From an uncultured bacterium (GTDB lineage Bacteria > CSSED10-310 > CAZUFC01): 12,153 bases of DNA. The DNA is taken from contig CAZUFC010000036.1 in the NCBI GenBank assembly GCA_964619725.1, positions 1 through 12,153 of the forward strand, written 5' to 3'. The stretch's first letter is position 1; each line of letters begins with the position of its first letter. The position numbers and the translations under genes are program-made. Below, one piece after another: positions 1-12,153 of the stretch. A model generated the notes under the pieces. It searched no databases. It had not been told where the DNA came from and was given only the letters and a program-made list of their open reading frames with translations.

Positions 1-87
1 GTTGTCTTTGGGCTGGTTGGGGGTATAGTTGGGTTGTCTTTGGGCTGGTTGGGGGTATAGTTGGGTTGTCTTTGGGCTGGTTGGGGG
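1..87. repeat. 32-bp G-rich tandem repeat, 2.7 copies, possibly truncated by the window edge
   Basis: Unit GTTGTCTTTGGGCTGGTTGGGGGTATAGTTGG occurs exactly at 1-32 and 33-64, and its first 23 nt recur at 65-87. There are no spacers. Confidence 0.95.
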
Positions 88-170
88 AATCACCTCCTTT
101 ACATATCCTGACATTGATCGGTAAAATTTTTGAACCGTTTAAACAACACACAACCAGATTAAAAATTTTT

Positions 171-231: not shown

Positions 232-254
232 CGTGGTTACAATTTTTTCAAAAC

Positions 255-401
255 ATTTGACAGTTTGTTTAAGTAATCGGGGGCGGTATCGGGATCGGTA
301 TCGGGTTCGCAATCGCAATCGAAATCCAAATCGAAATCGAAAAAAAATGATGGGATATTCCGCAGAATTGTAACCTCAATAGACGAATTTTCGATCAATG
401 C
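255..401 (+). repeat. Left copy of a long imperfect inverted repeat containing an (ATCGNN)x11 hexamer array
   Basis: Aligns with the reverse complement of 12018-12153. The hexamer array lies at 276-341. The unique part 342-401 matches at about 50 of 61 positions by hand count. Confidence 0.88.
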
Positions 402-460
402 CGAAAATTTAAACATGCAAGAGTAGAAAGGACGAGTGTTTTATTTACCTTTATGAGCGA

Positions 461-1873
461 TTATCCTCGAAGAACAGCCAGTGCGCCTTTAATCATGGTC
501 AGCGGTTTTATGGTGCGCCGTTTCAGATGTCTCAGGATCAGACGCGGTCTGGCATAGAAACGGAAAACAGCTTGATTTTGAATTTTAATCAGTTCTCGGT
601 CAGTCATATTTTCGGGTGTGAACAGCAATTTATCTTTCTTGTCTGCAGCATGCCAGCTTGAGAAGTATTCCGGTTTTTCCAGGGCTTTCTTTCTGACTTT
701 GATCTGCTCGAACAGTTTCGATCCGGGATAAGGTACGACGCGATTGAATTTGGCGAAGTCACAGTCGAGTTTTAAACTGAATTCAATCGTTTCTTGGCAT
801 GTTTTAACGGTATCTCCCGGAAGTCCCAGCATAAAAAAGCCCAGGCTGACGATTCCCGCTTTTTTGGTCGCTTGCATGGCGTTGTATGCCGCTTTTCTGC
901 TCAAGGGCTTACCGGCTCGCTTCATCACAGACTCGTTTCCCGATTCAAAGCCGTACATGATAAGCCTGAGTCCTGCCTCTTTCATTCTGGCCAGCAATTC
1001 GTAGTCGACCAGGTCCACTCTTGATTCGGTCAACCAGGTCATTTTGTTATGCAATTTTCTTCGGATAAGTTCGTCAGCGATATTAAATCCCTCTTGTCTG
1101 CTGACGGGAAATACCGAATCAACGAAACCGAAATGATTCACTCCGAATCGTTCATGCAACATTTCCGCCTCGTCGACAGCCTTCTCCACGCTTCTTTTCC
1201 TGAATGTCGGGAACATGACGTTCTGCGAGCAGAAGGAGCAGCGGTAGGGACAGCCTCTGGAAGCGGAAACCGGCATGATGACGCCGTTGAAAGAGAGCAT
1301 GGGCGCTGCTTTGTAATGCTTGAGATTCAGCAGGTCCCAGGCTGGAAAGGGCAAGGCGTCCAAATCGTCAACAGGATCGGCATCGCCTGTATAAAAAATG
1401 TTGCCGTTTTTGATGCAGGAAAGACCTTTTACTTTTTCGATGTCCAGGTTTTTCTCAAGAGCGTTCGCCAGTTCCGCCAGAATATATTCTCCTTCGCCGT
1501 GCACTATGAAATCGGCGGCTCCCTGATTAAGCAACTCTTGAGAAAAGTATGCGGCATGAATATTTCCCAGGACGACTTTCAATTTACTGTTTATCTTTCG
1601 TATTTCTGATACGGCATGAACGACGGCCGGCATGGCGGGAGTCAGGCAGGAAAAACCCACCAGATCAGGATCGTTTTTCATTATTTCGTCGACCAGCGTT
1701 TGAGTATCAGACTTATCGGCATACTGGTCGATTATAGATACTTGATGTCCTCTCATTCTCAGGACTGCGGCTATCGAGGCCAAACCGAGCGGTGCGACGG
1801 GAGTCATGAAAGGCCGGAAACGTCCCAGCACTTTTCGCAAATCCGCTCCTGGATTAACCAAGACAATTCTCAT
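461..1873 (-). CDS. Cobalamin-dependent (class B) radical SAM enzyme, probable methyltransferase, 470 aa
   Basis: N-terminal B12-binding-domain hallmarks (APLGLASIAAVL, GNIHA, GEGE), SRGCPYRCSFC CxxxCxxC motif, ESRVD, GFESG and FMLGLPGDT. ATG lies 1 nt after the upstream stop. Confidence 0.92.
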   Translation of the reverse strand: MRIVLVNPGADLRKVLGRFRPFMTPVAPLGLASIAAVLRMRGHQVSIIDQYADKSDTQTLVDEIMKNDPDLVGFSCLTPAMPAVVHAVSEIRKINSKLKVVLGNIHAAYFSQELLNQGAADFIVHGEGEYILAELANALEKNLDIEKVKGLSCIKNGNIFYTGDADPVDDLDALPFPAWDLLNLKHYKAAPMLSFNGVIMPVSASRGCPYRCSFCSQNVMFPTFRKRSVEKAVDEAEMLHERFGVNHFGFVDSVFPVSRQEGFNIADELIRRKLHNKMTWLTESRVDLVDYELLARMKEAGLRLIMYGFESGNESVMKRAGKPLSRKAAYNAMQATKKAGIVSLGFFMLGLPGDTVKTCQETIEFSLKLDCDFAKFNRVVPYPGSKLFEQIKVRKKALEKPEYFSSWHAADKKDKLLFTPENMTDRELIKIQNQAVFRFYARPRLILRHLKRRTIKPLTMIKGALAVLRG

Positions 1874-1874
1874 A

Positions 1875-2675
1875 TCAGACCTTCACAGCGCTGAAAACGA
1901 TGTCGAAATCGCCGCAACGGGAATCGAACGACCTTGCAGCGGCCTGCTCCGTCCTGAATCCATGTTTTTCGAGCAAATATTCCAGTTCGCAGCGTCCCAC
2001 CATTCGTTCCTTCCATTCCAGCACAACAGACCCGGCCGGCGTTCCCCGTTCAGACAAAAACTCAAACGTTAATCTCATCTGGATCGTCTGCTGAAAATAA
2101 TCGATATCGAGGACCCGGGATCGGGCGATAAATGAGCCTTCATTTTCAGGATGCGTGACTTTTACGGGGTGATGCTGGAAGGATTGCACGGCTTTCGGAG
2201 TGAGTATGTTCAGTAAAAATATGCCTCCCGGTTTCAAGGCGCGTCGAACGCCCTGAAGCAACTGAGATTGCTGTTTTTGTCCGGCGAGCAAATGAAAGGT
2301 GGCGCCCAGACAGACTGCCAGGTCAAAGGATTCCTTAAAGGGTAAAAACAGAAAATCCCCCTGTATGAGAGCGGCATTCTTTTTGACGCTGGGCGGCAAT
2401 TTTTGACAGGCGGCATCGGCATACCTCAGCAACTGTTCAGATATATCCAATCCGGCGCTGAATACATTGCGTTTCGCAGTCTCAAACAGAACCCGCCCGT
2501 AACCGCAACCCAACTCCAGCATTCGTGTTCCTGGCCGGCAATGATTCAAAACTGCAAGCACATCAACATCTTCTGAACCTGCCCCAGCTTCCTGCATCAT
2601 CATGGCTCGCCACAGGTCTCCATAGCATTCGTAAAGCCTGTTGTTTTCGTATTTCGGTTTTTTATTGGCGTTCAC
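1875..2675 (-). CDS. Class I SAM-dependent methyltransferase, 266 aa (start uncertain)
   Basis: Motif I LELGCGYGR, GLDIS, QGDF, FDLAVC and LKPGGIF. GTG start with a weak RBS. Confidence 0.9.
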   Translation of the reverse strand: MNANKKPKYENNRLYECYGDLWRAMMMQEAGAGSEDVDVLAVLNHCRPGTRMLELGCGYGRVLFETAKRNVFSAGLDISEQLLRYADAACQKLPPSVKKNAALIQGDFLFLPFKESFDLAVCLGATFHLLAGQKQQSQLLQGVRRALKPGGIFLLNILTPKAVQSFQHHPVKVTHPENEGSFIARSRVLDIDYFQQTIQMRLTFEFLSERGTPAGSVVLEWKERMVGRCELEYLLEKHGFRTEQAAARSFDSRCGDFDIVFSAVKV

Positions 2676-2707
2676 TTCTTCGATTCAGTCCATTCTGCTG
2701 CAGAAAA

Positions 2708-3958
2708 TTACCTTCCGACCAGGAACCTTCTGTAACGCGTCACTTTATAAAATATTTCCGCAATTTCGTCCATCTCTTCGATCGTTCCATTAAGCGCCGG
2801 GTGAGGCAAAAACAGGGTTCTTTTGCAGTAATCTTCGGCGACCGGGCATTCCATTTTCGTAAAATCGTGCTGTCTTTTCTGAAAGGGACAACTGACGGGA
2901 CATTCCTGTTTATCGAACATGCGATTCAGAAAGACAGGATTCTTGTAGACGGGATGCGGATATCCGGGAGCTGCAGGAACGCCTTCAGCGGTTAAGGCTT
3001 TAGCGACAGTCTCCGGCCTGGTTCCCGCGAATTTATTCAGGTCGATCAGCAGGACGAAAGCTGCAACAGCGCTGCGAAAGCCGGGCTTTGAGGCCGGTAA
3101 GGCTTTCCATCCCGGTATTTCTTTTATTTTTTGTCTCAGGTGATCGACGTTTTTTAACCTGTTTTCAATCATACCCGGCAGGCGGTCCAACTGATGATGA
3201 ACCATGGCCGCCTGGAATTCAGTCATCCGGTAGTTGGCGCCGGGGATATAATGAATAAAAGGATGACCGCCGGGTTTACGCCCGTAGTCTATGAGGGCTG
3301 CAGCTCTCTGATAGGTTTCAGAAGAATCCGTAACGATAAGGCCGCCTTCTCCCGCGGACAAAATTTTTCCTTCTGTGAAACTGAACACGCCGGCATGTCC
3401 GAAAGCGCCGGCGGTTTTATCCGATATTTCAGCGAAAGGAGCCTGAGCGCAATCCTCTATGACTTTGATGCCATATTCTTCGGCAATATTTTTTATTCTG
3501 GGCATATCGGCAGGATTTCCCCAAAGATGCACAGGAATAATCGCTTTTGAAGCCTCGGTGACGACACGCGGAATATCGTCGGGATCGATACAGTAAGTTT
3601 CCGGATCGATATCAGCGAACACGGGAACGGCATTGGCTTTCAGAACAGCTCCGGCGGTGGAATAAAATGTCGCCGCCGGCACAATAACTTCATCACCGGG
3701 GCCAATGCGCAAAGCATTCAAGGCCGTTTCCAGTCCTGCGCTGCCGCTTGAAACCGCCAGAGCATGCTTGCTCCCCGTCATGTCGGCAAAAGCCTGTTCC
3801 AGCCGAGCCGTCTTATCTCCTCTGGTCCATCTTGCTGAAGCAGCTATTTCCTTGATTTCTTGCGATAAATAAGACGGATCGACCAATGGAGTCCTTCCGG
3901 GACAGACCCTTATCCGGGGACCGCCGAATAACGCCAGCGGGTTCTTTCCTGTCGGCAT
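2708..3958 (-). CDS. DegT/DnrJ/EryC1/StrS-family PLP-dependent aminotransferase, 416 aa
   Basis: GPGDEVIVPAATF, PVFADID, IIPVHLWG, IEDCAQA, catalytic Lys in SFTEGKILSAGEGG, NYRMTEFQAA. Start re-placed at ATG 3958 (MPTGK), preceded by AGGAAGG and 1 nt after the upstream stop, instead of 4003. Confidence 0.93.
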   Translation of the reverse strand: MPTGKNPLALFGGPRIRVCPGRTPLVDPSYLSQEIKEIAASARWTRGDKTARLEQAFADMTGSKHALAVSSGSAGLETALNALRIGPGDEVIVPAATFYSTAGAVLKANAVPVFADIDPETYCIDPDDIPRVVTEASKAIIPVHLWGNPADMPRIKNIAEEYGIKVIEDCAQAPFAEISDKTAGAFGHAGVFSFTEGKILSAGEGGLIVTDSSETYQRAAALIDYGRKPGGHPFIHYIPGANYRMTEFQAAMVHHQLDRLPGMIENRLKNVDHLRQKIKEIPGWKALPASKPGFRSAVAAFVLLIDLNKFAGTRPETVAKALTAEGVPAAPGYPHPVYKNPVFLNRMFDKQECPVSCPFQKRQHDFTKMECPVAEDYCKRTLFLPHPALNGTIEEMDEIAEIFYKVTRYRRFLVGR

Positions 3959-3959
3959 A

Positions 3960-5273
3960 TTAACCTTCCTCTTTTGCGCCCAATCGCGACGCAGTTTCCA
4001 CAAACAAAGACCGCAAAAAATCGGCGTTGAATCCCTCGCCTTCCATTACCGGATTAAAATAACAGTATTTGTCCCAGTCATAGTGCAAAATATTCAATCC
4101 CATCTCCCGGCTCCGGCAAAACTGCGCCGTCCCTGGAAAGGGCGTGTTCAACCTAAGACAAATCTGAACGCCGTAAAGGTTCTTTAACCTCTCCGCATAG
4201 GCAATGGTCTTCTGCATCGTCGCATGCGTATCGCCGGGCAAACCCAACATGAAATAACAAAATACCGTTATTCCTGCATCTTTCAACAGATTTATTGCCG
4301 GTTCGACATCCTTCAATCTTAACTTCTTATTAATTCCCTCCAGAATATCCTGATCGCCGCTTTCTATGCCTATCTTTACCTTACGGCAACCTGCCACAGC
4401 CATTAATTCAATCAGTTCGGCGTCCAGAGCATCTATCCGGGTCTGACATTCCCAGGTCACATCTTCCAGATTCTCCGACATCAACTTAAGCAACATTATC
4501 GTTTTTCTCCTGTCATACGAGAAAAACTGATCATAAAAAGTGAAATGCTTCACGCCCTCACGACATAAATACACTATCTCCGAAAAAATGTTATCCGAAC
4601 TCCGGGAACGGATGCCTGATCCGAACATTTCCCTGGAGCAGCAAAACACGCATCGATGAAGGCATCCCCGGCTCCCCGTCAATGCCCCTGAATGACGATA
4701 ATGACCCACAGCAATCAATTCTCTGGCCGGTAAAGGCATCGAATCTAAATTTCGGACGCCTCGCTTTGCAGATTCTATAACCATTTTTCCATCATTATTA
4801 CTGTATGCCAGTCCGGGAATTTTGAATCCTGCCTCTTTCGCCTTGCCGCATCTCATGAGTTCCAGCAGCTCAATTAAACTCGAATCAGCCTCTCCGGCCA
4901 GAACGTAATCCGCTGTTCCCGGTTCGAGAAATTCTTCTGCGCAGAACGTCGTATGAACTCCTCCCGCCACGATCACGGCATTCGTCGATTTTCTTATTTC
5001 TTTTATGACATCCCTGGCCCGGCACGCGGTTTCGGTGTGTACGCTTATGCCGGCAACCCACGGATTTATTGTTCGTATTTTTTCTGTGAAATCCCGGCGA
5101 CTGACGTCCCGGTTTATCATGTCCATGACATGAGGTTCATAACCGTGCATACGCAACCTTGAAGCCAGGTAGAGCAACCCCAGGGGCGGCGAAGAGTGTA
5201 TTCCGTCCCGGCGATAAGCCAAATCGTAGAATTTCCTTAATGGCGGCTGTATCAGTAATACACGTTCTTTCAA
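3960..5273 (-). CDS. Cobalamin-dependent (class B) radical SAM enzyme, 437 aa
   Basis: PPLGLLYLASRL, GGVHTT, GEAD, SRGCLHRCVFC, TRID, GIESG and FMLGLPGDT. TTG start with GAGGA upstream. Confidence 0.92.
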   Translation of the reverse strand: MKERVLLIQPPLRKFYDLAYRRDGIHSSPPLGLLYLASRLRMHGYEPHVMDMINRDVSRRDFTEKIRTINPWVAGISVHTETACRARDVIKEIRKSTNAVIVAGGVHTTFCAEEFLEPGTADYVLAGEADSSLIELLELMRCGKAKEAGFKIPGLAYSNNDGKMVIESAKRGVRNLDSMPLPARELIAVGHYRHSGALTGSRGCLHRCVFCCSREMFGSGIRSRSSDNIFSEIVYLCREGVKHFTFYDQFFSYDRRKTIMLLKLMSENLEDVTWECQTRIDALDAELIELMAVAGCRKVKIGIESGDQDILEGINKKLRLKDVEPAINLLKDAGITVFCYFMLGLPGDTHATMQKTIAYAERLKNLYGVQICLRLNTPFPGTAQFCRSREMGLNILHYDWDKYCYFNPVMEGEGFNADFLRSLFVETASRLGAKEEG

Positions 5274-5276
5274 CGA

Positions 5277-5594
5277 TTAATCTTCCTCGGAAAATGTGGC
5301 CGTTTCAAAAGATATAAGCCTTATTTTCAATAAAGCATCCAGAAATTCAAAAACATGACATTGCAATTCCTCATCCGTCACCTTTTCGTCTTTATACCGT
5401 TCGATCACCTTATCCACGATATCGCCGACAGTATTCGATTCATCGATCATTTCCCATATTTCCGCTGCAGTATGATTCAATCGTTGCTCCATTTCACCGA
5501 ATATGATTATGGAACCGTCATCTTCTTTTTTCCACAGGAACGTTTCTTTTCTGGGCGTCTTTTTCAGCCATTCATTAAGAGCGGAATCTTCCAT
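5277..5594 (-). CDS. Stand-alone PqqD-family RiPP recognition element (RRE), 105 aa
   Basis: Short beta-strands followed by LNHTAAEIWEMIDESNTVGDIVDKVIERY...VFEFLDALLKIRLI, the typical PqqD pattern. GAGGA RBS 5 nt before the ATG. Confidence 0.9.
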   Translation of the reverse strand: MEDSALNEWLKKTPRKETFLWKKEDDGSIIIFGEMEQRLNHTAAEIWEMIDESNTVGDIVDKVIERYKDEKVTDEELQCHVFEFLDALLKIRLISFETATFSEED

Positions 5595-5595
5595 T

Positions 5596-5814
5596 TTAAT
5601 CCTCGCTTGCCTTAACGGGTATAATTTCTTTTATTTCTTTTAACGGACACCAGACAGAGAATCCCGTATCCCGGTCCAATTGCACCAGGATGCCTTCTTC
5701 GGAAGTTCCGGGATGATCGTGAAAACCGTACAGAATACCCGAAAACGACCCGTTCCGCTCTGTTCTTAACAGAATCCTGCTCCCGGCAATTTCCGTTATT
5801 TGGTCCCTGTTCAT
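5596..5814 (-). CDS. Small hypothetical protein, 72 aa, possible Sm/LSm-like beta-barrel
   Basis: AAAGGA RBS 7 nt upstream. It fills the gap between its neighbours (12 nt and 1 nt). The segment GSRILLRTERNGSFSGILYGF resembles the Sm1 pattern. Confidence 0.8.
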   Translation of the reverse strand: MNRDQITEIAGSRILLRTERNGSFSGILYGFHDHPGTSEEGILVQLDRDTGFSVWCPLKEIKEIIPVKASED

Positions 5815-5826
5815 CCCCGTTTCCTT

Positions 5827-7707
5827 TCAAGCGCCTTCGGGCAATCCTGTCATCATGGTCCGTGCTGTTCTGTCCGCACTGTCATCACTGAGCGGCGAGG
5901 TTTGGAATTCAGGCGTCCTGGATATCATCGGCGCTATTATTTTTCTTCGGATTCTTTCAGCTTTTCCGGCTGCATGCTGACCGGCGGCATCGCTGATAAT
6001 TTCATCCCAGCTTCTGTAGTTCAGTTCGCTCATCAGTTCAAAAGCCTCTTCATCTACGGATGTCAGTTTCGAGTTAAAAAGGTCAAAGACAAAATAACCG
6101 TTTTTCCATTTAAAAGGAAATATTTTCAGGCTTTTCGGACCTATTGTTTTTGTAAGCCGGTCCTGCCAGCGATTCAAAAAATCGTCAGCAGCCTTAAAAC
6201 GTTTTTCGAATTTTCTTACCGCTTCACGTAAGGAATAGAATCCCGGAACAGAATGCTCCGTCAAACCGATCAATTCTTCCAGGAAGTCCACTTCAGCCTC
6301 ATTCAACATACTAGTCAGAAAATGAAATTGATTGATCGCCTGCCTGGTGCGGGCCTTTCCTATTATATTTCTCCAGGGAATTGCATCAACTTCGATTCTT
6401 CTGGCCCGTCTAACGAAATTATGCATATATATTTTAGCGATAACGACCAGGCAATGGAAAACAAAAGCGATTCTCTCGTCTTTGAATCGGAAATGATATA
6501 AAAAACCCTCGCGAAAAAGGACTCCCGCCTTCTTCAAATCATCCATAACAGGCACATTGGAAAAGAGATAAAGGAAATTGGCGACGGTGACCAGGACGCT
6601 TTTTTTCCTTATTCTCTCCTTGTAGAAGTTCACAGTGGCTTTTAATTCCTGGAACGTCGTAAAAGGATCGAAAGCGATGTAGCCGATGGCTGAATTCACC
6701 TGAAGACTATCCAGTATTTCCAGGGCTTTTTCATTATCCCTGACGGTTTGTCCTTTTCTGTACATCCTGAGTTGACGGGGATTAACGGATTCTATGCCCA
6801 GGAATACGGATTGCAGTCCCACCTTTTTGAGCGTTTCGATTGTTTTGTAATCCACCTGGGAAGCCCTCACCGGCAGATTTATCTTCACCGGTATTTTTAA
6901 CTTCGTCATGGCCCTGTAAAGATCGTAGATGCGTTCTTTGGACTCTTTTCCAGGTACAATGAAATTATCGTCCACAAAACTGATGACGTTCAATTCGGGA
7001 AACCGGTCAAGCAATATGTTCATTTCAGCAACGATATTTTCGGCGCTGCGCGTTCTCCATATGCTGCCGGGAGAAGCGCCGTAGAATTTTCGTATGGCGC
7101 AGAATGCGCATCGCGCCGTGCAGCCTCTATCGGTCAACAGCGATATCTGCTCCCGCCCCAGGATCGTCCGTCTTGCATTCGGACGCAAAGGAAACGGCAG
7201 TTCATCCAGGTTTTCGATAAGAGGAGTCGGCGGATTGATCGTTATGTTTGACCCGTCGCGGTAAGCGATGCCGGAAACGCTGCGATGATTTTCCCCGCGA
7301 CGCAATTTTTCCATCAATTCCTTTATCGTTCTTTCACCCTCGCCGTACACGACGATATCGACGGAAGCCGCTTTTTCCATAAGTTCCCGAATGTTTCCCG
7401 TGGGTCCGTATCCTCCCATTATTATCACGCCTTCGTATCCTTGGCGTCGAATCTTCTCCGATATTTCAACCACGCAATCCAGGGATTGATCCAACGCCGT
7501 GAATCCCACGGCGCCCGGCGACAGTTCGCAGATCAACCGGATCGTCTGGTCCCGGCTCAGCTCATTCATTATCATGTTTACTATCAGCGTATCGAATCCC
7601 GCCTCCTCTAAAACCGCAGCCAGATATCCCACACCCAGATGATCAATGTAATATTCCGGGGTCTCGAATTCCGGTATGACTAAAATGATGTCGGAAACTG
7701 GTTTCAT
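5827..7707 (-). CDS. Cobalamin-dependent radical SAM enzyme with C-terminal extension (probable RRE), 626 aa
   Basis: HLGVGYLAAVL, GGYGPT, GEGE, RGCTARCAFC, FVDDNF and LGIES. Start re-placed at ATG 7707 (MKPVSDIILV), which overlaps the CPBP stop as TGATG. The ORF-track start at 7935 lies inside the upstream gene. Confidence 0.9.
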   Translation of the reverse strand: MKPVSDIILVIPEFETPEYYIDHLGVGYLAAVLEEAGFDTLIVNMIMNELSRDQTIRLICELSPGAVGFTALDQSLDCVVEISEKIRRQGYEGVIIMGGYGPTGNIRELMEKAASVDIVVYGEGERTIKELMEKLRRGENHRSVSGIAYRDGSNITINPPTPLIENLDELPFPLRPNARRTILGREQISLLTDRGCTARCAFCAIRKFYGASPGSIWRTRSAENIVAEMNILLDRFPELNVISFVDDNFIVPGKESKERIYDLYRAMTKLKIPVKINLPVRASQVDYKTIETLKKVGLQSVFLGIESVNPRQLRMYRKGQTVRDNEKALEILDSLQVNSAIGYIAFDPFTTFQELKATVNFYKERIRKKSVLVTVANFLYLFSNVPVMDDLKKAGVLFREGFLYHFRFKDERIAFVFHCLVVIAKIYMHNFVRRARRIEVDAIPWRNIIGKARTRQAINQFHFLTSMLNEAEVDFLEELIGLTEHSVPGFYSLREAVRKFEKRFKAADDFLNRWQDRLTKTIGPKSLKIFPFKWKNGYFVFDLFNSKLTSVDEEAFELMSELNYRSWDEIISDAAGQHAAGKAERIRRKIIAPMISRTPEFQTSPLSDDSADRTARTMMTGLPEGA

Positions 7708-8546
7708 CAGGATAAAAGCGCCCCAAAGAAACGATAATTGTCGATCAGTCCATGCACGGCTATTCCGGGTATTAAACTGCCCGAACGACGATAGACCTTG
7801 CACAGCGACGCATGAAAAATCAATACGGCCATTCCGTAAAAAACCGCATGCCCAACGCCGCCGACCTGAGCCTCTATCAGGACCGTACGCCAATGACTCA
7901 ACAAGTAAACCGCACCCGATAAAACAACAGCCCATCCCCGGGAAAACCTCCCCAAAAACGCAGGAAACAAAAATCCCCGATAATAGAACTCTTCCAGCAA
8001 AGCTATGTAAATAAAACCTCTGAATACTGCAGCCGCTGCGCCTGCTCCGGAAACAGGACGAACAGGAGGCGCCATCCCGGACATGAAAAGGATTCTCAGA
8101 AGCGTCGGAGCGATTCCCAGGAGCGTCAGCAGCAGAAGTCTTTTATCTATGACGAACCCTATATCCTTCAGGCCGGAACGGTCCAGGAGCATACGCCAGA
8201 TGAATGGAACAACGAGCATAATTAGAACCATAATGCTGGGAACCAGCATCGCCCTGGGCCCGGGAATTCCGCTTCCCGCAGGGAAATCCTTTAACAGCAC
8301 GGCCTTTCTTTGAACGGCCGTCAGTATTAAAGGAAGGAAACTGAAAAGCATCAACTCCAGGGGGCTGTATTTTCTTATCTCAATTTTTTTCCTGATTCGA
8401 GGATAAACCACGAAAGTTATGCAAAGGAATCCCAGCATATGCGTGATCGCATAAGGGTCTATAATGATCAGACTTATAACGTAAAGCAAGACGGCGCGGA
8501 ATGGATCGCTGATATAATTTTCAATTCTGGAAAGTATATTTTTCAT
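7707..8546 (-). CDS. CPBP (Abi/type II CAAX) family intramembrane glutamic protease, 279 aa
   Basis: Multiple hydrophobic segments with the family motifs EExxxR (EEFYYRG), F/YxxxH (YLLSH) and HxxxD/N (HGLIDN). Confidence 0.9.
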   Translation of the reverse strand: MKNILSRIENYISDPFRAVLLYVISLIIIDPYAITHMLGFLCITFVVYPRIRKKIEIRKYSPLELMLFSFLPLILTAVQRKAVLLKDFPAGSGIPGPRAMLVPSIMVLIMLVVPFIWRMLLDRSGLKDIGFVIDKRLLLLTLLGIAPTLLRILFMSGMAPPVRPVSGAGAAAAVFRGFIYIALLEEFYYRGFLFPAFLGRFSRGWAVVLSGAVYLLSHWRTVLIEAQVGGVGHAVFYGMAVLIFHASLCKVYRRSGSLIPGIAVHGLIDNYRFFGALLS

Positions 8547-8552
8547 TTCAGG

Positions 8553-9782
8553 TCAGTTCGGACCGGCAGCGTTTTTCGATTCACCCGGCAGGCTTCCTGT
8601 TATGATCATGCCCAGCAAAGGCAGAAGAGGATAAGTTTTAAACAATATCTCAATGACTGCGGCGGATTGAAGCATAAGGGTTGCGATGAGGAGTGAGACG
8701 CCGCCGGTTACGTTCATGACGAACATAATGACGGAATTTTCCAGGCCGCTTTCCACACGAATGAATTCCCGCAAGTTGGAGAAGATGAGATTCGACATAT
8801 ACGCTTCAGCAGCCATAAATAATCCCCAGCATATGATTTTGACGGGATCGTTGCGAAAAAACAAGGCGATGACGACCGAAATGAGCGTCATAGCCGCGAA
8901 AACCAGCCTGGAATGACTCAGTTTTATTCTGTCCGTGGACTGAAGCATTACCGATGATACCAGGAAAATAACGAAAGACAGCAGGACCAGTAGTCCGACA
9001 GAGGGCATTTCTTCAGCAGAACTTATTTTCAGCAAATGCACCGGTATGGCGAAAAGGTATATCGCTCCGCCATATCGCACAATCGATATCATTACGAACA
9101 ATCTGACTGTCCGGCGATTCATTATGCGGGCTATGGTTTTCCATCCTGACAGAATCGTTAGATCGGAAGCTGATTTCAGCTTTATTTTTCTTACTCCGAA
9201 AAAGAAAAGGAATGCCGCTGCGATTATGCCCAGAGCGCCGGCGATAAAGGGAAGGATGGTTTTTACTCCGTAAAGCGACATGCCGACGGGATACCCCAGC
9301 CAGCCCAGTCCTGAAAAGATCATTATGCCGATGTAAAAACGGGAAATCAGATCAGGCGGCAATGTGGAAAGCGTAAAAACTCGACCGGCCGTCTGACTTA
9401 AAGCCACGGCCATGCCTGCTGTGAAACCCAGCAGTGCGAGCAGCATAAAATTTTCAATGAAAAAGAAAAATAATATCGGCACGACGGAATAAAGGAGCAA
9501 AGCTATCGTCAATATCCTGCGATAATTGTATTTTTCCACCAGGTATCCTGCGAAAGGACATAATAACGCCATCCCCCAATAGGATGTCATCAGTAAAAAT
9601 GAAATATTCGAAAGCGTATACTCATTATCCAGCAAAAAACGTATCTCTGCCAGATACAGTATCGACCCCGCAATGCTCAATACTACGTCGCCCAGCAACG
9701 GGTATAAAAAAATTCTCTTTTTTATGATCTCAAGGTATTTTGTTGCAGGCGCAGCTATTGTTTTCTCCAGACCAGCGACCAT
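8553..9782 (-). CDS. MFS-type transporter, 409 aa (likely exporter)
   Basis: About 12 hydrophobic segments in about 400 aa and a motif-A-like loop GYLVEKYNYRR. Overlaps the upstream rSAM by 28 nt. Confidence 0.8.
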   Translation of the reverse strand: MVAGLEKTIAAPATKYLEIIKKRIFLYPLLGDVVLSIAGSILYLAEIRFLLDNEYTLSNISFLLMTSYWGMALLCPFAGYLVEKYNYRRILTIALLLYSVVPILFFFFIENFMLLALLGFTAGMAVALSQTAGRVFTLSTLPPDLISRFYIGIMIFSGLGWLGYPVGMSLYGVKTILPFIAGALGIIAAAFLFFFGVRKIKLKSASDLTILSGWKTIARIMNRRTVRLFVMISIVRYGGAIYLFAIPVHLLKISSAEEMPSVGLLVLLSFVIFLVSSVMLQSTDRIKLSHSRLVFAAMTLISVVIALFFRNDPVKIICWGLFMAAEAYMSNLIFSNLREFIRVESGLENSVIMFVMNVTGGVSLLIATLMLQSAAVIEILFKTYPLLPLLGMIITGSLPGESKNAAGPN

Positions 9783-11179
9783 AAAGCGTTTTCAAGACAT
9801 TCATAGTTGAATCGACAGAAAGGGTCTCTATCCTTCAAATCACCTCTCACCTGATAGGCGCGAGCCCTGCAGCCGCCGTTACAGAATGTTTGCAAATCAC
9901 AGAACGAGCAACCGACAAAATCGAATTTCCGGAGTTTCACATATTTTTCTATTGAAGCATCATGAATGGACTTCATGTCCTTCTCACGAAAATTGCCCAG
10001 GCGAAAATCATCTCGATGAAAAAAAGGACAGGGGAAAACGTCGCCGTTCGGAGCAACGCTCAATATGCTGCAACCCATGCCGCAATTTATTATGTTAACG
10101 CCTTCAATCAGTCCCGTGTAATCGTTCAAACAGGATATGTGCAGCCCGAAATCCGCCGGTTCTCTCCCATGAACGCCTGATGTCGTCAGTAACGTGTTTG
10201 CCTTCTCAGCCGTCTTCTTTAAACCGGCTATGAGACTTTCCCTCTCCGGCGCCCTTTCACCGGCTCCTTCATAACCGTGTACCGGCAACTCAATATTGAC
10301 GCGAAGAAAATTGCATCCCATTTCATAAGCCAGCTCCGCCATCTCCTCCAGGCGTTCAAAATTTCCCGAATGCACCGTGCAGCAAAGACCGATAGAAACG
10401 TCAGAATCCATCTTTAAATTCAACTTCTGAAGCATTTCCACGTTCCGCAACACTCTGTCGAAAACGCCCTCTCCCCTCGTCAAACTGTTCGTCTCCTCGT
10501 CAGGCCCGTCCAGCGATATCTGCACCAGATCGATAAAAGGCAACGCTTCTCTCCATAAGTCCTCGTCGCCGACCGTCCCGTTCGTCGGCACGGTAATGGA
10601 ACCCGCTCCCTTCTCTCTTACGGTCCTCAGTATTTCCGTGAACTGCGGGTGCAGCAGAGGCTCGCCGCCTGTCAGAACTACATTAAGCTGACTGAGAACG
10701 TCCCGGTCCATCCACTCCAGAAGAACTTTCATATCGTCAGGTTGAAGCTCCGTCGCCGCCGCTGTGTCGGATGAACAATCCACATAACAGTAAGGACATG
10801 ATAAATTGCACCGATCAGTCACATGAAGATACAACGTCCTCAAAACCGGATGAACCGTCGCCGGCTTATCGTTATATGAAATCTTCTCCGCTTCCGATTC
10901 TCTGAACGCTATTCCCAGCTCATTCGCCTCGCATAGAAAATTCATTACATCCGGCAGAATGACCGATTTCAAAAGTCCATACTTCGACGACAATTCTTCC
11001 GCCGTCTCTTCAACCGTCAAACCCTTCTCGCAAAGACGCAGAATCTCCGTTCCCACGTCGTTTGTTCTCATCCACCTGGCAGTATCGGGAAATAATATCA
11101 GATACTGAACGCCTCTTTGCCTTACCTCAAATGGATATACTCTAAACCGTTCTCCGGCATCAATGCTCCGACGGCCCAT
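9755..11179 (-). CDS. RRE-radical SAM-SPASM peptide maturase, 474 aa
   Basis: N-terminal PqqD-like domain (NDVGTEILRLCEKGLTVEETAEELSSKYG...DVMNFL), CNLSCPYC, TGGEPLL, QISLDG, and a full SPASM domain: CGMG...GDVFPC...CSFC-x5-CNGGC...DPFC. Confidence 0.93.
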   Translation of the reverse strand: MGRRSIDAGERFRVYPFEVRQRGVQYLILFPDTARWMRTNDVGTEILRLCEKGLTVEETAEELSSKYGLLKSVILPDVMNFLCEANELGIAFRESEAEKISYNDKPATVHPVLRTLYLHVTDRCNLSCPYCYVDCSSDTAAATELQPDDMKVLLEWMDRDVLSQLNVVLTGGEPLLHPQFTEILRTVREKGAGSITVPTNGTVGDEDLWREALPFIDLVQISLDGPDEETNSLTRGEGVFDRVLRNVEMLQKLNLKMDSDVSIGLCCTVHSGNFERLEEMAELAYEMGCNFLRVNIELPVHGYEGAGERAPERESLIAGLKKTAEKANTLLTTSGVHGREPADFGLHISCLNDYTGLIEGVNIINCGMGCSILSVAPNGDVFPCPFFHRDDFRLGNFREKDMKSIHDASIEKYVKLRKFDFVGCSFCDLQTFCNGGCRARAYQVRGDLKDRDPFCRFNYECLENALWSLVWRKQ

Positions 11180-11251
11180 AACGCGCTGTTCTCTCCAGAT
11201 ACTGCAATCCGAGACTGCAATTTTCCAAAAACGGGATGAAATAAATTAAAT

Positions 11252-11428
11252 TTATGAAGCCACGGCGATGCCTATGGCTACTCCGGCAGTCACAGCCGTA
11301 CTGCCCGCGGCTGTGCCTACCACCAGCCCGTCTCCGCAGAATCCGACATTATATTGAGCCTTCTCCGTGCCGCCCATGCCGGCTGCATTTATTTTCGGCG
11401 TAGTATAGATGACAGGTTTTACATACAT
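11252..11428 (-). CDS. RiPP precursor peptide A2, 58 aa: MYVKPVIYTTPKINAAGMGGTEKAQYNVGFCGDGLVVGTAAGSTAVTAGVAIGIAVAS
   Basis: Translated by hand; shorter than anything in the ORF track. RBS GGGAAAGGA at 11445-11437, TAA stop. 49/58 identical to A1. Confidence 0.9.
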   Translation of the reverse strand: MYVKPVIYTTPKINAAGMGGTEKAQYNVGFCGDGLVVGTAAGSTAVTAGVAIGIAVAS

Positions 11429-11476
11429 TAATCCGATCCTTTCCCGTGATCAATCGGTCCGATTCGTCCTCTTTTC

Positions 11477-11505
11477 TTTTAACATGAAAAGAGAAGACAA
11501 GTCAA
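11477..11505 (-). promoter_or_regulatory. Putative promoter-like motif upstream of A2 (TTGACT-N15-TGTTAAAA)
   Basis: Near-consensus -35 hexamer, with the same layout as the motif upstream of A1. The -10 match is weak. Confidence 0.35.
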
Positions 11506-11533
11506 GAAAACGGCATTTTTTCGGAACGTTCGA

Positions 11534-11713
11534 TCACGAGGCTACGGCGACTCCTATGGCTACGCCGGCAGTGAGGGCCGTGCTGCCCGCTGAAGCGTAT
11601 ACCACTAAAGAATCTCCGCAGAATCCGACGCTGTACTGCGCCTTCTCCGTGCCGCCCATACCCGCGACGTTGATTTTTGGAGTCGAATAAATGACGGGTT
11701 TTACATACATCAT
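11534..11713 (-). CDS. RiPP precursor peptide A1, 59 aa (58 aa if started at 11710): MMYVKPVIYSTPKINVAGMGGTEKAQYSVGFCGDSLVVYASAGSTALTAGVAIGVAVAS
   Basis: Translated by hand. Same RBS GGGAAAGGA at 11727-11719, TGA stop. Paralog of A2 with mostly synonymous differences. Confidence 0.9.
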   Translation of the reverse strand: MMYVKPVIYSTPKINVAGMGGTEKAQYSVGFCGDSLVVYASAGSTALTAGVAIGVAVAS

Positions 11714-11756
11714 TCGCGTCCTTTCCCTTACTGCGCAATATCTCCATCTTTTATTG

Positions 11757-11800
11757 ATTAACAGATTTCTCCGGTTAAGTCAAATTGTCAACTTTTGACT
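11757..11800 (-). promoter_or_regulatory. Putative operon promoter (TTGACT-N14-TGTTAAT) overlapped by the palindrome AGTCAAA-N9-TTTGACT
   Basis: Minus-strand TTGACT at 11783-11778 and TTGACA at 11791-11786. Perfect 7-bp inverted arms at 11778-11784 and 11794-11800. Confidence 0.45.
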
Positions 11801-12017
11801 ATAATCATCCTGGCGTTTTTAATCGCAGTGTTTTTAAGGATTTCCAAAGTATCAATTGCGGTGGTGATTATTGTATCAAGAAAATTGTGTTCCGGTGTTC
11901 CGTGGCTCAGAGCCCTGCCGAAACTCTTATGAAAAAAATATTTATTGTCCGCGAAACTTCGCGAATCTACGCGAAAAAGAGCAGAGCCATGTAAAGCAAA
12001 GAAAACATGGAAACGGA

Positions 12018-12153
12018 GCATTGATCAAAAATGGGTCTTTTGAGGTTACATTTTTTTCCGAATATTCCATCATTTTATTTCGATTTCGATCCCGATTACG
12101 ATACCGATTGCGATACCGATGCCGACCCCGATTATCGAAAAAAACTGTCGAAT
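12018..12153 (-). repeat. Right copy of the inverted repeat, with an (ATCGNN)x9 array; runs to the window edge
   Basis: Its reverse complement reads ATTCGACAGTTTTTTTCGATAATCGGGGTCGGC...ATCGAAATCGAAATAAAATGATGGAATATTC...TGTAACCTCAAAAGACCCATTTTTGATCAATGC, matching 255-401. Confidence 0.88.

Follow-up and report, generated by a model that had tools for sequence, protein, structure and literature searches.

The stretch of DNA analyzed here (the window, 12,153 nucleotides of contig CAZUFC010000036.1 from an uncultured bacterium) holds one minus-strand operon for 12 proteins. In order, these are two precursor peptides, A1 and A2, a radical S-adenosylmethionine (SAM) maturase with a peptide recognition element (RRE) and a SPASM domain (RRE-SPASM), an MFS transporter, a CPBP intramembrane protease, a cobalamin (B12)-binding radical SAM enzyme (B12_1), a protein of 72 amino acids (small72), a stand-alone PqqD, a second B12 enzyme (B12_2), a DegT aminotransferase, a class I methyltransferase (MT), and a third B12 enzyme (B12_3) (Table 1). 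Precursor, RRE, maturases, protease, and exporter form a complete set for an RRE-dependent peptide made by the ribosome and modified after translation (RiPP). The stretch 1875–3958 runs exactly from the stop codon of MT through the ATG of DegT. With gaps of 1 nt between B12_2 and DegT, 32 nt between DegT and MT, and 1 nt between MT and B12_3, the intact DegT (PF01041) and MT (PF13649) genes are both members of the operon, in agreement with a first, sequence-only reading of this stretch. That reading had also seen no glycosyltransferase or NDP-sugar enzyme in the operon; with Pfam and NCBIfam profiles, none of the 12 proteins matches a family of glycosyltransferases, NDP-sugar enzymes, or dehydrogenases. 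Window positions 400–11976 are found with 0 differences in a Logan contig whose run (X1) may be where this DNA came from.

The precursors and their conserved end

A1 and A2 are 84% identical paralogs with uncharged, Gly/Ala/Val-rich cores, and both end in Ser58, as first read. Because the two are so close and 2,770 of the 27,724 short ATG-initiated open reading frames (ORFs) of the source genome (10%) also end in Ser, this ending carries little weight by itself. It becomes strong evidence with the precursor of a second, independent cluster, in genome G203, which ends in Ser as well. That single precursor of 77 amino acids, preceded by a strong ribosome-binding site, ends in GGIFTVAVAS-stop, and its leader motif, FTAPVL, resembles YVKPVI of the window precursors. 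When the final 30 residues of the G203 precursor are shuffled, an AVAS end arises 8 times in 200,000, and the AVAS-ending short ORFs of the source genome (G000) number two in 27,724, namely A1 and A2 themselves. Over the whole peptide, the similarity between window and G203 is not significant (142 of 2,000 shuffled peptides score as high). On these comparisons, the AVAS end is thus kept against a near-total divergence of the precursors and has a fixed place at the stop codon, so that the conservation of the terminal Ser, which the sequence-only reading had proposed to check, holds in the only independent cluster found.

Among 1.84 billion proteins, a profile of A1 and A2 picks up only its own sequences and, over short stretches, two long proteins (2,278 and 3,148 amino acids). 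No homologues were found in metagenomes, and Atlas matches reach at most 0.81. Splicease chemistry was ruled out: the precursors have no Tyr-Gly motif, which we take to be a requirement of that chemistry.

The second cluster and the search for others

G203 belongs to the phylum that holds Desulfovibrio, which is not the phylum of the window. It was found with a profile of the DegT clade described below (650 bits, 1 of 401 genomes), with which non-clade DegT relatives score at most 461 bits. Since a homologous cluster exists, the label "orphan" first given to the aminotransferase is wrong. The order in G203 is precursor, PqqD, B12-radical SAM, RRE-SPASM, ABC/FtsX, CPBP, small72, PqqD, B12_2, DegT, a CxxCxxCC protein, and a second CPBP. 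The RiPP set is complete there too, and the block CPBP-small72-PqqD-B12_2-DegT is common to both genomes at 31%–43% identity (31% over 88 amino acids for CPBP; other values in Table 1). No dehydrogenase, sugar, or cyclitol gene is seen in the window operon or the G203 locus.

In G203, the place of MT behind DegT is filled by the CxxCxxCC protein (PF03692, 326 amino acids, L140:5967-6947), with the second CPBP next. Three Cys lie in the Gly/Asp-rich middle of the G203 precursor (L140:18170-18403), and a PqqD-B12-radical SAM pair of its own is located upstream, which suggests that this precursor may receive extra thioether or methyl tailoring.

In the large searches for clade DegTs, 4–12 candidates were scored per genome. 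We did not observe any in 13 other genomes of the window's own phylum (with a single-protein query), in 201 genomes of the phylum of G018, or in the G017 (201 genomes) and G020 (141 genomes) samples. The G015 and G016 samples each gave one match at the non-clade level (419 bits, 1 of 401 genomes, and 438 bits, 1 of 301, respectively). In the class of G203, the counts of 1 in 9 and, in an overlapping second sample, 1 in 291 are both G203 itself. The DegTs retrieved from 20 loci on viral contigs and from 10 plasmid records are all generic. A DegT scan of GTDB contigs gave 47 loci, among which tblastn with the window genes revealed no RiPP cluster (ORFs were read for five) and radical SAM matches occur in L018, L010, and L039. 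In L018, a Nanobdellota locus with several radical SAM genes, a 652-amino-acid protein is a DegT-radical SAM fusion (L018:9905-11863); by eye, the locus also shows glycosyltransferases and a carbamoyltransferase. In a metagenome scan with SPASM, DegT is present in 0 of 80 loci, many contigs being short. A PqqD-B12-radical SAM-RRE-SPASM-ABC block resembling the first block of G203 (36% identity for the B12 enzyme) occurs in L051:1980-4964, with neither precursor nor DegT within that 5.4-kb contig. Another short contig (L053:1-2883), with an FtsX permease fragment, a small protein, CPBP, and an RRE-SPASM devoid of the extra Cys discussed below, represents a related cluster type.

The aminotransferase

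The window DegT contains the catalytic Lys198 and the residues Asp169, Ser193, and Glu204 that bind pyridoxal phosphate (PLP), equivalent to K192, D163, S187, and E198 of BtrR. Its nearest solved structures are BtrR-type cyclitol aminotransferases (193 bits); the equivalogs of NDP-sugar aminotransferases (PseC, LegC, ArnB, WecE, DesI) are missed, the best score being 201.5 against a cut-off of 420. No homologue above 45% identity occurs among 7,998 scored candidates. In a tree of 120 rows, it clusters with two proteins, P0253 and P0143 (SH-aLRT 99); in a quick tree of 41 rows, these three and the G203 protein form a clade (SH-aLRT 98) apart from four other DegTs of the genome. The window DegT is the longest end branch of the 120-row tree (1.46), so there is some risk in its placement. 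The clade lies within the BtrR group, and both members with a known context, those of the window and G203, sit in RiPP clusters.

The Lys and the three PLP-binding residues are kept in all four clade DegTs. With the BtrR numbering transferred to the clade by hand from the structure-match alignment, position Gln189 of BtrR is Gln in 79 of 85 other DegTs and Thr or Met in the four clade members (Thr195 in the window); the Asn after the catalytic Lys, present in 77 of the 85, is replaced in all four; and position Tyr304, His in 73 of the 85, is Ala or Leu in all four (Ala299 in the window). In docking and molecular dynamics, Gln189 and Tyr304 of BtrR touch the cyclitol (PMC6429434). Since the PLP residues are kept while conserved pocket residues are replaced, we infer that the clade DegTs are active PLP enzymes with a changed substrate.

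The candidate oxidases and the methyltransferase

The absence of a visible dehydrogenase in both clusters implies a radical SAM enzyme as the oxidase that would make a carbonyl for DegT. B12_2 with its PqqD, to which we assign about an even chance, is slightly ahead of RRE-SPASM, whose chance falls a little below that. In both genomes, B12_2 adjoins DegT and has a PqqD to itself; it is better conserved than the SPASM enzyme, and its orthologs differ from the paralogs at shared positions. Oxidation to a carbonyl by a B12-radical SAM enzyme is known for BchE (PMC13598231). For the terminal Ser, B12_2 is a candidate oxidase or, alternatively, a candidate C-methylase.

As for RRE-SPASM, the window and G203 orthologs are the only 2 of 120 SPASM enzymes with an additional Cys four or five residues (+4/+5) behind the first SPASM Cys. 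In both it aligns with Cys261 of anSME, the window residue, Cys370, across a two-residue gap. Fully ligated auxiliary clusters are a mark of the oxidizing enzymes anSME and BtrN (PMC6231123); the anSME type has eight Cys for two such clusters, and Cys370 may be a ligand of this kind. The positions of His363/Gln364 in CteB, a thioether former, follow an auxiliary-cluster Cys and are Pro-Phe in the window and Ser-Leu in G203, so this CteB-type feature is lacking; the enzyme may still be a thioether former of another type. Points against the SPASM enzyme as the oxidase include the related PqqD-B12-SPASM block of L051, which has no DegT in view, and a precursor Cys that is available for a thioether. 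PMC10288494, from which the active-site positions were taken, warns that what a SPASM enzyme does cannot be read from similarity over its full length. RRE-SPASM is a candidate oxidase, or else a candidate thioether former on Cys31.

For the methyltransferase (METHYLTRANSFERASE), the nearest solved relatives are CorZ (9SOT), aligned over residues 48–251 (E 1.4e-15), and CypM. CorZ is an N-terminal methylase that works after leader removal (PMC12951456). MT is probably an amine N-methylase, an accessory limited to the window cluster. The new amine would be its target in about half of our expectation, since MT lies directly behind DegT; the freed N-terminus, suggested by its relatives, is a somewhat weaker candidate.

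The proposed route and its alternatives

The reading that we put forward, at roughly equal odds of being right or wrong, is a convergent and anaerobic daptide-like route from the C-terminal Ser to a decarboxylated amine C-terminus. The genes, their order, the catalytic residues, and the conservation are observed; we infer all of the chemistry from two clusters. A radical SAM enzyme recruited through an RRE would oxidize Cβ of Ser to an aldehyde, and the resulting β-oxo acid would lose CO2 to leave an aminoacetaldehyde amide (−46 Da). DegT would transaminate the aldehyde to an ethylenediamine end (−45 Da), with the acid end replaced by a diamine as in daptides; in a variant, prior Cβ methylation by a B12 enzyme would lead to the propanediamine end of daptides. 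CPBP, likely the leader-removing protease, would then cut off the leader, and the transporter would export the product. The mass shifts first predicted for these products are correct upon recomputation. That DegT acts at the terminal Ser, with or without decarboxylation, has the balance modestly in its favor. A more specific version is doubtful: a radical SAM enzyme that depends on cobalamin and has an RRE to itself would oxidatively decarboxylate the C-terminal Ser, and a DegT drawn from aminocyclitol metabolism would aminate it, to yield ethylenediamine-capped membrane peptides, a new RiPP class of anaerobes.

If the proposed route is right, charge reversal of a peptide C-terminus would have evolved twice with unrelated enzymes, a DegT would accept a ribosomal peptide, and a radical SAM enzyme would turn a C-terminal Ser into an aldehyde. 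In the more specific version, the route to the two-amine design of daptides would be fully convergent and free of oxygen and NAD, and the B12-radical SAM enzyme would be a non-methylating one. The same terminal shift would occur in both clusters, with N-methylation only where MT is present. Daptide enzymes are under development as C-terminal labeling tools (PMC12338566), but the Mpa oxidase rejects Ser; here, a route specific for Ser, used with AVAS as a short tag, would offer an aldehyde handle. A RiPP pathway joining DegT, radical SAM, and precursor was not found in the literature covered, in which subscription papers are mostly lacking; datasets on daptides and RRE-radical SAM enzymes may contain such clusters as unstudied entries.

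Several observations weigh against this route. The AVAS motif was chosen after being seen and could serve another C-terminal reaction or a recognition; Ser43/Thr44 also align in the G203 precursor, in an uncertain alignment; and Cys is present in both precursor types (Cys31 in the window). The independent clusters number only one, P0253 and P0143 being known without gene context, and every characterized close relative of DegT works on cyclitols or sugars. Some extra Cys in the same loop occurs in 32 of 120 SPASM enzymes, and the best solved match of the window enzyme is CteB, with StsB also close. The position of anSME Asp277, presumably the catalytic base, is Pro385 in the window SPASM and Ser in G203; this residue and the fixed place of B12_2 beside DegT count against the SPASM enzyme as the oxidase, the role first proposed for it, for which the aligned extra Cys still speaks. 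Most B12-radical SAM enzymes are presumed methylases (PMC13598231). The daptide oxidase MpaC rejects Ser (10.1101/2023.03.08.531785), so there is no known precedent enzyme for a daptide-type reaction on this residue. MT has no match in the G203 locus, and its only match in G203 is weak (41.5 bits) and on a different contig. Its top NCBIfam match is the daptide methyltransferase NF041820 (DapM), where it reaches 68.2 bits and the cut-off is 175. Because two unrelated methyltransferases of this genome that lie outside RiPP contexts obtain 105.1 and 67.7 bits with that model, the resemblance was dropped as specific evidence. The closest solved relatives of MT are N-terminal methylases besides, and its coupling to DegT is weaker than had been proposed at first.

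The BtrR-type character of DegT, its best PDB matches, would also fit an enzyme that works, with MT and the B12 enzymes, on a cyclitol or sugar in a BtrN- or gentamicin-like way, the product being beside the peptide or attached to it. The genome has many B12-radical SAM/glycosyltransferase loci, with B12_3 nearest to two of them (~33%), the DegT-radical SAM fusion of L018 lies in an apparent glycosylation locus, and a GT-C-like gene (by eye) is present upstream of the operon. However, in another phylum the DegT ortholog keeps PqqD, CPBP, and an AVAS precursor and has no sugar gene, the cyclitol-pocket residues are lost throughout the clade, and the genome's other DegTs fall outside this clade; we hold this explanation to be unlikely. 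A slightly lower chance goes to a route with the same AVAS end and the same enzymes in which the terminal Ser is oxidized to formylglycine and transaminated at once, with no decarboxylation; the chain would then end in 2,3-diaminopropionate, its carboxylate kept, with a net shift of about −1 Da. The Arg of an RxNTPFPG motif common to the B12_2 orthologs could hold the carboxylate (2 of 5 rows, a weak sign), but a C-terminal β-oxo acid should decarboxylate readily, like the daptide intermediates (10.1101/2023.03.08.531785).

Amination could also be internal, a radical SAM enzyme oxidizing Ser43, Thr44, Thr47, or Cys31 and DegT yielding diaminopropionate or diaminobutyrate, with AVAS kept for some other reason. 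S43 and T44 are aligned in all three precursors, anSME oxidizes internal Ser or Cys (PMC5682303), and no decarboxylation is needed. Yet the alignment lacks significance in the interior, whereas at the end four residues are identical and stop-anchored, and the buried DegT site would fit a chain end better; this places the internal route just behind the diaminopropionate end in likelihood. The smallest share falls to a scheme in which DegT modifies the N-terminus that CPBP exposes, or else catalyzes a non-transaminating PLP reaction, next to a SPASM thioether, B12 C-methylation, and an N-cap added by MT. The proximity of MT to CorZ and CypM and of the SPASM enzyme to CteB and StsB, and the Cys of the precursors, agree with such a scheme, but the conserved AVAS end is left unexplained and the residues at the CteB His363/Gln364 positions do not fit.

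Other features of the operon and its surroundings

Table 1. Genes of the minus-strand operon in the window, by position
Feature	Position	Strand	Remarks
B12-radical SAM B12_3, coupled behind MT	461..1873	−	no clear G203 ortholog
Class I SAM methyltransferase (MT)	1875..2675	−	PF13649; nearest CorZ, CypM; not in G203 cluster
DegT/StrS PLP aminotransferase, BtrR-like group	2708..3958	−	PF01041, 332 bits; 41% to G203 ortholog
B12-binding radical SAM B12_2, directly upstream of DegT	3960..5273	−	38% to G203 ortholog
Stand-alone PqqD/RRE preceding B12_2	5277..5594	−	PF05402; 41% to G203
small72, 72 amino acids, predicted Sm/LSm-like fold	5596..5814	−	43% to G203; model pLDDT 85.6
B12-radical SAM B12_1, 626 amino acids	5827..7707	−	no clear G203 ortholog
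CPBP (Rce1-like) intramembrane protease	7707..8546	−	PF02517; CPBP at same place in G203
MFS transporter	8553..9782	−	PF07690; ABC/FtsX genes instead in G203
RRE-radical SAM-SPASM maturase	9755..11179	−	seven-Cys motif + extra Cys370; 28% to G203
Precursor A2, 58 amino acids, AVAS end	11252..11428	−	
Precursor A1, 58 amino acids, uncharged Gly/Ala/Val core, AVAS end	11534..11710	−	

The protein small72, which ranks with the best conserved in the module, lies between CPBP or B12_1 and PqqD (G203 copy at L140:10091-10330). The best structural matches of its model are YaeO (Z 9.8), RimP (9.5), and Hfq (9.0); it may be an accessory in the manner of DapB. For B12_1, an RRE at the C-terminus is not supported (the probability is low). 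A paralog of B12_1 (43%) stands alone on contig C126 of the source genome (L049:7648-9600, G000:C126), with no RiPP genes seen nearby.

Outside the window, the same strand encodes a membrane protein of 611 amino acids some 740 bp upstream of A1 (L048:456-2291; G000:C36:12455-14290); it has no Pfam match and is GT-C-like by eye only. A GT2 gene is about 9 kb away on the opposite strand. The same degenerate hexamer-repeat element is present at both ends of the operon (window 233–420 and 11900–12153); the read depth over its upstream copy is ~65-fold higher, so it is a multicopy repeat, and it may mark where the operon was inserted. Window positions 1–96 hold a direct repeat of 32 nt. Scans for promoters and terminators gave matches at chance level.

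Comparison with known systems

Several other enzymes resemble single members of the cluster. In the text compared, anSME converts Ser or Cys, also internal ones, to formylglycine, MftC performs a C-terminal oxidative decarboxylation, and neither is described with an aminotransferase (PMC5682303). The extra Cys of the SPASM enzyme aligns with Cys261 of anSME, and the Asp at position 277 of anSME is lacking; with the MftC model (TIGR03962), the score is 118 bits against a cut-off of 265, and the precursors end in AVAS, not in Val-Tyr. CorZ/BytZ of myxarylin and CypM of cypemycin are the closest solved relatives of MT, at low identity, so they do not tell which amine is methylated. With BchE and the gentamicin enzymes GenK/GenD1, the B12-radical SAM fold is shared, with carbonyl oxidation in BchE and C-methylation beside aminotransferases and N-methylases in gentamicin; B12_2 scores 150 bits against the BchE cut-off of 481 and is paired with PqqD and a peptide.

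In butirosin, as proposed here, a radical SAM enzyme (BtrN) oxidizes an alcohol anaerobically and a DegT of the BtrR group (BtrR/BtrS) aminates the carbonyl (PMC13707489). The substrate there is a free cyclitol, with neither RRE nor precursor, and the pocket residues Gln189 and Tyr304 of BtrR, the best PDB match, are replaced in the window DegT.

Daptides (MpaABCDMP or DapBCDM; 10.1101/2023.03.08.531785; PMC12338566) share with this cluster a hydrophobic, uncharged, Gly/Ala/Val-rich core, an invariant β-hydroxy residue at the C-terminus, an RRE, a PLP aminotransferase, an amine methyltransferase, an intramembrane protease, and the proposed logic of oxidation, decarboxylation, and amination. 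The components differ. In daptides the C-terminal residue is an invariant Thr, whereas all three precursors here end in Ser; the oxidation depends on NAD and DapB/DapC, here it would depend on radical SAM; the aminotransferase is of class III (PF00202), here a PF01041 DegT with no PF00202 match; the peptidase is an RRE-fused PF02163 protein, here a CPBP (PF02517); and here MT is optional and B12-radical SAM enzymes are additional. No Pfam or NCBIfam match to a DapB DUF-RRE, to the alcohol dehydrogenase DapC (PF00465), or to a short-chain reductase is seen in the 12 operon proteins, with no separate run of a DapB model. All five daptide features that can be tested in sequence are thus absent from the window cluster. 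The daptide-like route first suggested for this stretch is supported in part, by the conserved terminal Ser, a DegT clade associated with RiPP genes, a remodeled pocket, and the lack of any other encoded oxidase; its enzymes would be unrelated to those of daptides.

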